A stretch of 63,499 nucleotides of DNA, the filler included, from an uncultured Methanosarcinales archaeon (GTDB lineage: Archaea; Nanobdellota; Nanobdellia; Woesearchaeales; CAZXZL01): NCBI GenBank assembly GCA_964645415.1. It is 5 parts of 5 records of this genome, joined end to end, with 100 filler letters (N's around TTAATTAATTAA, not from the genome) between each part and the next. Parts side by side here need not be neighbours in the genome. Positions count along the whole stretch, not along the records: positions 28,543 to 41,927 come from CAZXZL010000028.1; 4 more parts are not named here. One strand, given 5' to 3'. Positions 33,001 through 36,000 of this stretch are shown piece by piece. How positions within the stretch are numbered: the first letter of the stretch is position 1; each line of letters starts with the position of its first letter. Made by a program: the position numbers.

Positions 33001-36000
33001 TTGTTGTTAAAAAATGTTTAATACTAATATCATTCCATGCAAGTCTTCGAGTAATTGCTGCAATAACACCTGGTTTATTTTTAAAATCTTCACTATATTT
33101 TATCTTAACTTTACTTAAATCAAACTCTTCATTAATCTTATAATCTTCTAAAATTGATTTTACTTTATCATAATGTGTTTTATTAAATATTAAATCAATA
33201 CAATCATCACCAAATATTTTGATAAACTCACTTTTTAAATTATTCTCAACCTTTTTCACACTATCAAGTTTTCTTTTAACAGTTACATTATATAGATTAT
33301 TTTTAAGAACAATTTCTAATGAATTACTTAAATCAAGTCTTGTATTTTTCTTATTAACTTTATCTTTAGCTCTTCTTAGTGCCATCACAACAGCACTATG
33401 TTTTACCTTTTTTCCAAGCTCTTTTTCAATATCAGGTCTAATCTTTTTAGCAAGAGATGCATAACTTACAATATCTTGCATAAATGCCTCTTGAAGAAAA
33501 GGTCTTACTTCTACATATTTTAATACAAGATGTGAAATTGTTACCATGTTAAATTAGAATTTAAGATTTGTATATAAAACTTACTTATTCTTAATTTTTT
33601 GTATATATGAATTTATCTTCTTCGAAACTTAGAAAAAAACTTTGTTTTTTTCAAGGTGAGAAATCTTTTGATTTCATTAACCTTTGAAACTTTGTTTTCA
33701 ATAGTTTTAAAATCTCTGATTTTATTCACTTTTAAATTTTTAATTTAACAGTTCTAAACTTTAGTTTAGTAATAATATGTATTCGTTTAATTTTCTTTCA
33801 GAGTGTGTATTCGTGTTTAGCTAAAGAAGCTAGAAATCAAAATCATCTAAGAAAAAAATACTAATAGAAAAAGAAACAAAAATAAATAAAATTTAATAGA
33901 AACTACCGTGCTACAGGTAGTATAGTACCATCCTGGTCAAGCATATAAAATCAGAGATTTTAAGGGTGTTTAATCATAGATTAAAAACTTTGATAAAGAT
34001 TGAGAAAAAATCATCTTAGTAAAAAAGAAGAAGTTTATAATAATTAATATAAAAGTGAATAGAACTTAATAGAAAAAAGATAGAATAAAAAATTTAATTG
34101 AAAATATTATTTTTTTAAATTAATACTATAAATATACTCTCTATTCTGAATTATTTTCTTTACTTTCTTTCCTAAACTTTTTGGAAGATTTGTTTTAATA
34201 TGAAGATGTAACTTTTCTTTTTTTACATTTGAAGAAACTGATAATAACTCAATATCACTTTTAGCAAATTCATCCAATAATTTAAGCATAATTTGTACAT
34301 CATCTTCCATTACAATCTTTAAAGATGTATTATCATCTTTCTTTTCTTTCCAATTTAATTTGATATTTCTTTTAGCTGATTTATAATTAACACAATTAAT
34401 TTTATGTACTGAAATATTTCCATTACCTAATATTACTCCTCCAATATCATCTTTAAACTTTGGCTTACAACAACCAGATATTTTAACCTTTGAATTAGAA
34501 TACTTTTTTGGAAGATTTACTCTTTCTTTTAATGAAATAATACTATCTTGGTTATCAACTTCATTATCTTTTCCTTCAATACCTAAAAAACTTCTAATTT
34601 TAGCCCTTGCTTTACTACTTGTAACAATATTTAACCACGAAAACTTTGGTTTAGGGTTCTTATTAGTGACTATTTTTACAACATCTCCATTTTTTAACTT
34701 ACTATCTAATGGAGCAGTTTTACCATTTACAATTGCTTGATTTGCTCTATGTCCAACTGATGTATGAACAGCATAAGCAAAATCAAGAGGGGTTGATTCT
34801 TCACTTAAAATAATTGGTTCTCCTTTTGGTGTAAACACAACAATATCATTTTTCAATGTTGTTACTTGAATTTTTTTATTCTCTAATTTTTTCTTCCAAT
34901 CGAGTAATACTTTTAGTAGTTCAACTCTTCTATCAAATAATGCATCTCTATCAACTTCTTTGTATCTCCAGTGTGCAGCAATTCCACTCTCTGCTTCATA
35001 ATGCATTTTTTCAGTTCTGATTTGTACTTCAAAAAATCCATATTCTTGAGAATCAACAGTAATGTGAATTGATCGATATCCATTTTTTTTTGGATTTTTA
35101 ATATAATCTTTAATTCTATTTTCCATTAAATTAAAATCTTCTTTTAATCTGACAAAAATCTTATAACATTCATCAACAGTATTTGTTATTATTCTAAATC
35201 CAATTAAGTCATAAATCTCTTCAAATTTCTTTCCATTATTGACCATTTTGTTATAAATAGAATAGAAACTTTTTAACCTATGTTCTAGCTTTGCTTCAAT
35301 ATTTAACTCATCAAGAATACTTTTGATCTTTTCTTTAATCTCTTTTTCATACTTTCTTCTGATTTGAATCGTTTCTGAAATTTGATCTTTAATCTTTAAA
35401 TAATTTTTATTATCTAAATACTTTAAAGATAAATCTGCAAGTTCTGATTTAATTCTACTTAATCCAACCTTTTCTGCAATAGGTACATATACATCTTTAG
35501 TAACTTCTGAAATTCTAATTCTTTTTTCTTCACTTACTCTATCTATTGTTCTCATTATATGAAGTCTATCAGCTAGTTTAATATATAAAACTCTAAAATC
35601 TTTAAATGAAGATAGAATAACTTTTCTTTGATTTTCAATAGTTCTTTCTTCTAAGTTTTCATAAATATGTTTTTGAATTTTTGTTAATGATGAAACAAGA
35701 AAAGCAATTGTTTTACCAAATTTTGCTTGTATCTCATCTTCTGTAACATCAAAGTGCTCAATTAAATCATGCATTAGTGCAGCACAGATTGTATCTGTAT
35801 CAACTTTATAATCTAAAAGAATTGTAGCAACAGATAGTGGGTGTGCCATATTTTTAATAGATTCCTTATCATTATCTTTATGAAATTTTTTAGAAAAAAT
35901 ATAAGCTTTTTCTATCTTCTCATGATCAAAATCATTTTTAATCATATCATTCCATTCCAATAATTCCTCTAAATTATTTGCATGGTTAAACTTCATTAGT

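Follow-up and report, generated by a model that had tools for sequence, protein, structure and literature searches.

Can an archaeon of the Woesearchaeales with a tiny genome make and remove (p)ppGpp, and with which enzymes? The question is raised by a gene in a DNA stretch of 63,499 nucleotides (the window), part of a genome that is 100% complete by markers and assembled in 79 contigs. The features on which the answer draws are the following, in window coordinates:

34107..35996, minus strand: long RelA/SpoT homologue (RSH) gene, product P0001, 629 aa, synthetase-only by sequence (Pfam, NCBIfam, AlphaFold2, Foldseek)
35460..35906, minus strand: HD (pseudo-)hydrolase domain, aa 31-179 (Pfam and alignment)
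34956..35282, minus strand: synthetase core, aa 239-347 (Pfam and alignment)
34665..34844, minus strand: TGS domain, aa 385-444 (Pfam and alignment)
34497..34649, minus strand: AH remnant, aa 450-500 (alignment and AlphaFold2 model)
34377..34490, minus strand: zinc-finger/RIS domain (alignment to E. coli RelA)
34113..34328, minus strand: C-terminal ACT/RRM-like domain, diverged (alignment and model)
29501..30220, plus strand: L44e and aIF5A, archaeal markers (Pfam/NCBIfam; context only)
36134..36263, plus strand: tRNA (Leu, CAA according to the alignment) with an intron at the canonical position, divergent from rel (context only)
36379..38823, plus strand: DNA gyrase A, neighbour divergent from rel (Pfam/NCBIfam; context only)

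The open reading frame for a 629-aa protein is confirmed on the minus strand, and the limits given in the survey's finding for the HD_4, RelA_SpoT and TGS domains are reproduced with Pfam. The motifs RIKD, YRSIH and DLIGFR, as well as the altered hydrolase motif HDLIEH, are all present. In profile searches of the NCBIfam type, P0001 passes the cut-off of TIGR00691 (518 vs. 499 bits) and stays below those of the RelA (PRK10872) and SpoT models. Among PDB sequences, B. subtilis Rel is the closest match (6yxa, E 5e-101). The colinearity that had been claimed with this enzyme conceals a deletion of ~75 residues in the AH region. The AlphaFold2 model, built on a 102-row alignment (pLDDT 88.3, pTM 0.83), has RelA (5iqr), SpoT (7qpr) and Rel (6yxa) as its best Foldseek matches; a single-sequence fold was discarded (pLDDT 34.7). 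Pfam ACT has no match in P0001, and this domain is assigned from the alignment and the model. All five long-RSH domains (HD, synthetase, TGS, zinc finger and ACT) are carried on one chain, the sole RelA_SpoT match of the whole genome.

A binning artefact, or a bacterial gene recently acquired and idle, has a negligible probability. The contig is archaeal, as the survey had stated: it carries an RqcH-like gene, L44e, aIF5A, TrmJ and the intron-bearing tRNA. The join between rel and the L44e side rests on read depth, because a genome-wide repeat at ~33570-34100 intervenes, a point in favor of an artefact; the depth is nevertheless about equal on both sides, and a read-derived contig (three soda-lake metagenomes of one study) spans 33976-38269, uniting rel, the intron tRNA and gyrA. 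Furthermore, the best 120 relatives are, where named, from Woesearchaeota or Nanoarchaeota, with no close bacteria shown, a long copy is common in the phylum (135 of 301 genomes), and rel is divergent from kae1 (identified by Pfam) in 20 of 111 loci, from 14 families. Depth, contig, relatives and linkage already refute this explanation. P0001 is a real gene, native to this genome and part of a large archaeal clade.

The repeat is an intergenic module that lies directly after the rel stop codon. Other contigs, frequently at their ends, carry many partial copies, and read depth over the module is raised 10-fold. Beyond it, downstream of rel and on the same strand, positions 32903-33547 encode a protein of 214 aa that starts like DUF7523 and has an ACT domain, a possible amino-acid sensor. 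The RqcH/NFACT-like gene (28566-29396, 276 aa) matches the last 270 of 645 positions of the archaeal model; it begins 24 bases from the contig end and may therefore be cut.

Long RSHs were detected in 90 of 251 genomes of the order (matches with E<1e-70) and, as given above, in nearly half of the phylum sample, which supports the view that the family is common in Nanobdellota. Genomes marked unpublished are included in these tallies (G161 in the order sample, G377 and G184 in the phylum sample). DNA gyrase A, near-universal in this archaeal sample, is present in 283 of the same 301 genomes, so the absence of rel is mostly not due to assembly loss, which is bounded at about 6%; this control does not account for shared lineage. 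In a tree of 329 synthetase, TGS and zinc-finger columns, with the hydrolase motifs and the AH left out, 66 rows (57 genome-derived archaeal and 9 unlabelled short ones) separate from 44 bacterial-like rows with an SH-aLRT of 99. A careful tree (LG+G4, bootstrap not fully settled) divides 65 archaeal or short rows from 12 bacterial ones with a support of 100/97 and places P0001 on a long branch (0.67). On these alignments, the archaeal long RSHs form one side of the tree against the bacterial rows, the bacterial sample being limited and its deep branches without firm order. The G161 protein is within the 113-row residue set and the 66-vs-44 tree, and was left out of the careful tree and of the neighbourhood, tRNA/zinc-finger residue and domain-decay counts. 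Pattern scans of the genome collection and of metagenomes gave 2 and 4 loci and no close relatives; the single locus with ORFs listed is a full-length bacterial-type Rel.

In the family f87, rel lies between enolase and GAPDH (both named by eye). The conservation of this linkage and of that with kae1 suggests a long vertical residence of the gene. One f87 genome (G314) has two long RSHs (L125, L070): a hydrolase-dead copy of the f87 type, and an intact copy that adjoins kae1 and branches with other families, through either transfer or misbinning.

The synthetase of P0001 is predicted to be active. R240, K242, K250, D263, Y307, H311, E323 and H342 are all kept, with RxKD at 294-297; the same residues and D297 are invariant across the 113 archaeal rows. 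H411 and F388-P390 of the TGS domain correspond to H432 and F409-P411 of E. coli RelA, which contact the tRNA CCA end according to a passage of PMC5291266; H411 and P390 are kept in 112 of 112 archaeal copies. Likewise, the zinc-finger residues C509, C510, H531 and C535 correspond to C612, C613, H634 and C638 of E. coli RelA, the first two being present in 112 of 112 archaeal copies and the last two in 111 of 112. The fetched loci are the best scorers plus 60 picked partly because they scored low, which means that shares among them do not reflect the population. P0001 itself lost three of six conserved columns of the synthetase-TGS linker as well as the ACT glycine, and its regulation may be loosened as a result.

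The preserved CCA-binding domain would also suit an enzyme whose product is not a guanosine alarmone, for example (p)ppApp, or one that pyrophosphorylates tRNA 3' ends like some toxic small synthetases. Such activities exist among small RSHs, as described in excerpts of the literature, and the usual metabolic targets of (p)ppGpp were not found in the genome. This is nevertheless very improbable, as the guanine-loop residues Y307 and H311 and the RxKD motif match Rel, the clade lies among long Rel proteins in the tree, and rel has no antitoxin-like neighbour.

Between the TGS and the zinc finger, the architecture is different. The AH remnant consists of a first helix and a flexible linker, and the AH core is absent. 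Compared with E. coli RelA, the alignment shows a loss of about 75 residues covering this core, with a linker of ~30 residues left. The spacing from the W that follows the TGS to the CC of the zinc finger is 47-71 residues in 113 archaeal copies and 45-67 in the 141 short family members, vs. a median of 132 in bacterial-like rows (121 of 128 rows). The AH core is absent in 141 of 141 short family members, so neither P0001 nor the archaeal copies possess the full AH (helical) domain. Since 11 of the 121 bacterial-like rows are also short (90 residues or less), AH shortening is not unique to archaea.

In RelA, the AH core packs on the tRNA D stem (a passage of PMC4974054), and with this core gone the RelA pose may be out of reach. 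In this rival view, P0001 would be a (p)ppGpp synthetase that responds, away from the ribosome, to free uncharged tRNA or to some other signal, with a zinc finger that is only autoinhibitory. Besides the general absence of the core, the compact model is slightly nearer to closed SpoT (TM 0.51) than to ribosome-bound RelA (0.42), a weak indication, and a 95-aa gene that tracks the rel family (103 of 113 carriers) could encode a new regulator. Against this stand the near-invariant zinc finger, the remaining linker, the presence of helix 38, uL11 and uS19 in the genome, and the absence of the 95-aa gene from the genome of P0001; activation off the ribosome is considered unlikely.

The unnamed 95-aa gene adjoins rel in 16 of 111 loci. 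Both genes occur in 103 of the 301 genomes, rel only in 32, the 95-aa gene only in 10 and neither in 156; the carriers include kin and are not independent. The protein shows no match in Pfam, NCBIfam, the PDB or the Atlas and no likeness to Rel. Its family (L041:1084-1362:-; alignments A2/A4) is beta-rich, belongs to Nanoarchaeia and is found near gyrA in several f87 genomes.

The HD domain has changed in another way. The metal ligands H52, H76, D77 and D143 are kept, as is E80, and the changes are R44>K, G47>I, D81>H, N147>I and E187>A. The same losses, with the metal ligands likewise kept, are found in P0002, a relative 82% alike. P0001 keeps five of the eight hydrolase residues of a bifunctional Rel (R44, H53, H77, D78, E81, D82, D144 and N148), among which D82 presumably has a role in the hydrolase. 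All eight are present in 75 of 113 archaeal rows, and five or fewer in 34 of 113; the other hydrolase-dead lineages have lost different residues. Hydrolysis by RelSeq is lost with R44Q, and its N148 is a substrate-binding residue (a passage of PMC13299517). With all four metal ligands in place and only a mild replacement at K44, some hydrolysis by P0001 is possible.

On columns conserved in 77 intact copies, the decay of hydrolase-dead copies is domain-specific. The 32 other dead copies keep 0.69 of these columns in the HD domain, 0.95 in the synthetase, 0.91 in the TGS and 1.0 in the zinc finger, and P0001 keeps 29/37, 33/36, 17/18 and 4/4, respectively. The "dead" label changes nine times on the tree (seven to nine times in bootstrap trees; a single change in 0 of 200), while the strongly supported branches alone force only two changes. 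Repeated loss is thus likely, with an uncertain number of events. Judging by residues, most archaeal relatives are likely bifunctional, and P0001 and several other lineages likely lost the hydrolase separately.

A separate enzyme could take over the degradation. The small HD protein noted by the survey on another contig (g00786, C42:2280-2891, 203 aa, HDTVED) does exist and is the second HD_4 match of the genome. It consists of an HD_4 domain alone, in which R, H, HDxxED, D and N are all intact, and its matches to Mesh1, Lmo0812 and Rel are about equally good. The suggestion that the genome has the parts to make and to degrade (p)ppGpp stands in that an intact synthetase, a degenerate hydrolase and a separate HD protein with intact motifs coexist; it missed the loss of the AH core and the bifunctionality of most relatives. 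Of 166 genomes that have no long RSH, 40 also carry such small hydrolases (HD_4 by Pfam), so the pairing of g00786 with P0001 is a prediction, albeit a likely one. The gene lies 1.1 kb from kae1. An origin as a piece of rel split off at an ancestral kae1 site was set aside: likeness to P0001 is only 32-34%, and the protein has the features of a small hydrolase. A CYTH-like gene (C42:5625-6098, minus strand) and an HD protein (C42:3531-4172, minus strand), both named by eye, are found within 3.5 kb of it.

Of the 135 genomes, 51 are taken as hydrolase-dead, 32 from a direct reading and 19 from the family to which they belong. With Pfam, a second HD_4 match is found in 8 of these 51, in 16 of 84 intact genomes and in 40 of 166 without a long copy. 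The conclusion from Pfam HD_4 alone that hydrolase-dead genomes mostly have no separate hydrolase was overturned for f87 when a profile of five small hydrolases was searched against 50 of the 51 genomes. A 390-aa protein was retrieved, with the motifs R, HP, HD-x-x-EE and KLADRxHN in 20 fetched loci, 16 of which have an adjoining TatD-like gene (named by eye). The member shown falls below the Pfam cut-off and matches RSH hydrolase domains in the PDB. Present in 32 of 36 f87 genomes and with strong matches in no other sampled family, the protein possibly represents an undescribed hydrolase subfamily. With this protein counted in, the number of dead genomes with a separate hydrolase rises to 34 of 51 (32 f87, one f126 and the genome of P0001); Pfam and profile search gave no match in the other 17 (2 f87, 8 f126 and 7 others). 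The pairing in 32 of 34 hydrolase-dead f87 genomes is support in kind and not a statistic, since f87 is one event. The 390-aa proteins (L188-L207, e.g., L195:1251-2423:+) have an insertion and a helical tail, and Atlas look-alikes are known from Thermodesulfobacteriota and Myxococcota.

Could P0001 still be bifunctional, with a weak hydrolase, and the C42 protein be a Mesh1-like nucleotide phosphatase with no connection to it, acting on NADPH or other nucleotides, for example? The retained metal ligands and E80, the small HD_4 proteins of genomes without a long RSH and the resemblance of the C42 protein to Mesh1 and Lmo0812 would all be compatible with this. It is, however, quite improbable, given the five changed residues, identical in P0002, and the f87 lineage, in which hydrolase loss is coupled with a dedicated hydrolase.

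The favored explanation, and a reasonably probable one, is that P0001 is a convergent RelA that uncharged tRNA activates on the archaeal ribosome, with the resulting (p)ppGpp slowing translation GTPases. The ribosomal parts are present: the 23S rRNA is full, with a full-length helix 38 (134 nt, where E. coli 820-950 has 131 nt), and the genome encodes uL11 and uS19. Together with the tRNA-CCA contact residues, the docking parts are available in the sense of presence only. A bacterial Rel would have entered the ancestors of Nanoarchaeia once, lost its AH core and been retained; the lineage of P0001 would then have lost the hydrolase, in parallel to RelA of Gammaproteobacteria. The C-terminal domains would keep the synthetase off at rest. 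With uncharged tRNA in the A site, the TGS would grip the CCA end, and the zinc finger and ACT would dock at the A-site finger. Activated P0001 would transfer pyrophosphate from ATP to GTP or GDP, and the C42 small hydrolase would remove the alarmone. Concerning its targets, no match was found in the genome for PF00156 (PRTases, HPRT-type), PF00625 (guanylate kinase, Gmk), PF00478 (IMPDH) or PF02541 (Ppx/GppA); Nudix gives one weak match, and translation GTPases give four strong ones. With the HPRT-type, Gmk, IMPDH and GppA genes not found, the effect would likely fall on the translation GTPases and the GTP pool. Both the activation by the ribosome and the GTPase targets lean on established RelA biology in addition to the parts seen in the genome.

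Extended to the whole group, the proposal is more tentative and somewhat doubtful: nearly half of Nanoarchaeia might run a true stringent response with an AH-less Rel clade, in which the split into a RelA and a separate hydrolase was re-invented several times, with the 390-aa f87 hydrolase and the 95-aa companion as new parts.

The survey had found no report of long RSHs in DPANN archaea. This does not hold, as PMC8407392 (2021) lists RelA/SpoT there, in 69.0% of Diapherotrites, 41.7% of Woesearchaeota, 21.3% of Pacearchaeota and 19.0% of Nanoarchaeota, and assigns it a bacterial origin. The taxa are the same as here and the frequency is similar (41.7% of Woesearchaeota vs. 36-45% sampled). 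The passages available from that paper give presence and origin and are silent on architecture, loss of the AH, state of the hydrolase and partners; nothing was found in two of its supplements. Archaea appear with small RSHs only in passages of the census PMC3153485, and the text of a 24,072-genome census (10.1101/575399) names no archaeal long subfamily, although its supplements may list such proteins. According to excerpts of PMC10249747 and PMC8646023, tests of archaeal species, all of them without RSH, detected no (p)ppGpp; the former, a 2023 review, in the same excerpts calls (p)ppGpp undescribed in archaea and the enzymes behind it rare among them. PMC8204110 mentions neither ppGpp nor SpoT. 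Searches that mostly did not cover subscription papers found no publication on the architecture, hydrolase status or activity of archaeal long copies. By these searches, the presence of the gene is already in print, which limits the surprise, whereas the AH-less design, the repeated hydrolase loss and the new partners apparently are not. The AH-less family makes the question of archaeal (p)ppGpp testable at the bench, with named proteins and residues. If the proposal is true, the RelA parts needed to read a starved ribosome are the TGS and zinc finger and not the AH core, and alarmone targets would be revealed in a cell with an archaeal RNA polymerase, where purine-salvage targets were not detected in the genome.

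Among the known systems, E. coli RelA[hS] (5iqr, 5kpv) shares with P0001 a pseudo-hydrolase, an intact synthetase, the TGS His, the CCHC zinc finger and the ACT, as well as the need, predicted for P0001, of a second enzyme for breakdown. In contrast to RelA, P0001 does not descend from the proteobacterial RelA duplication and branches inside the archaeal Rel clade; it has RxKD instead of ExDD, misses the AH core and keeps the HD metal ligands. Its partner would be a small hydrolase and not SpoT, and the ribosome and RNA polymerase of the host are archaeal. With Rel[HS] of Bacillota and Actinomycetota (B. subtilis Rel, 6yxa), P0001 has the RxKD motif and the domain order in common, and its archaeal relatives mostly also the complete set of hydrolase residues. 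P0001 differs from Rel[HS] in its length (629 vs. ~730 aa), through loss of the AH core, and in having lost the equivalents of R44, D82 and N148. The C42 protein, finally, resembles in sequence the small alarmone hydrolases (Mesh1, Mesh1-L and PbcSpo), in which an HD_4 domain likewise stands alone and has R, H, HDxxED, D and N intact.
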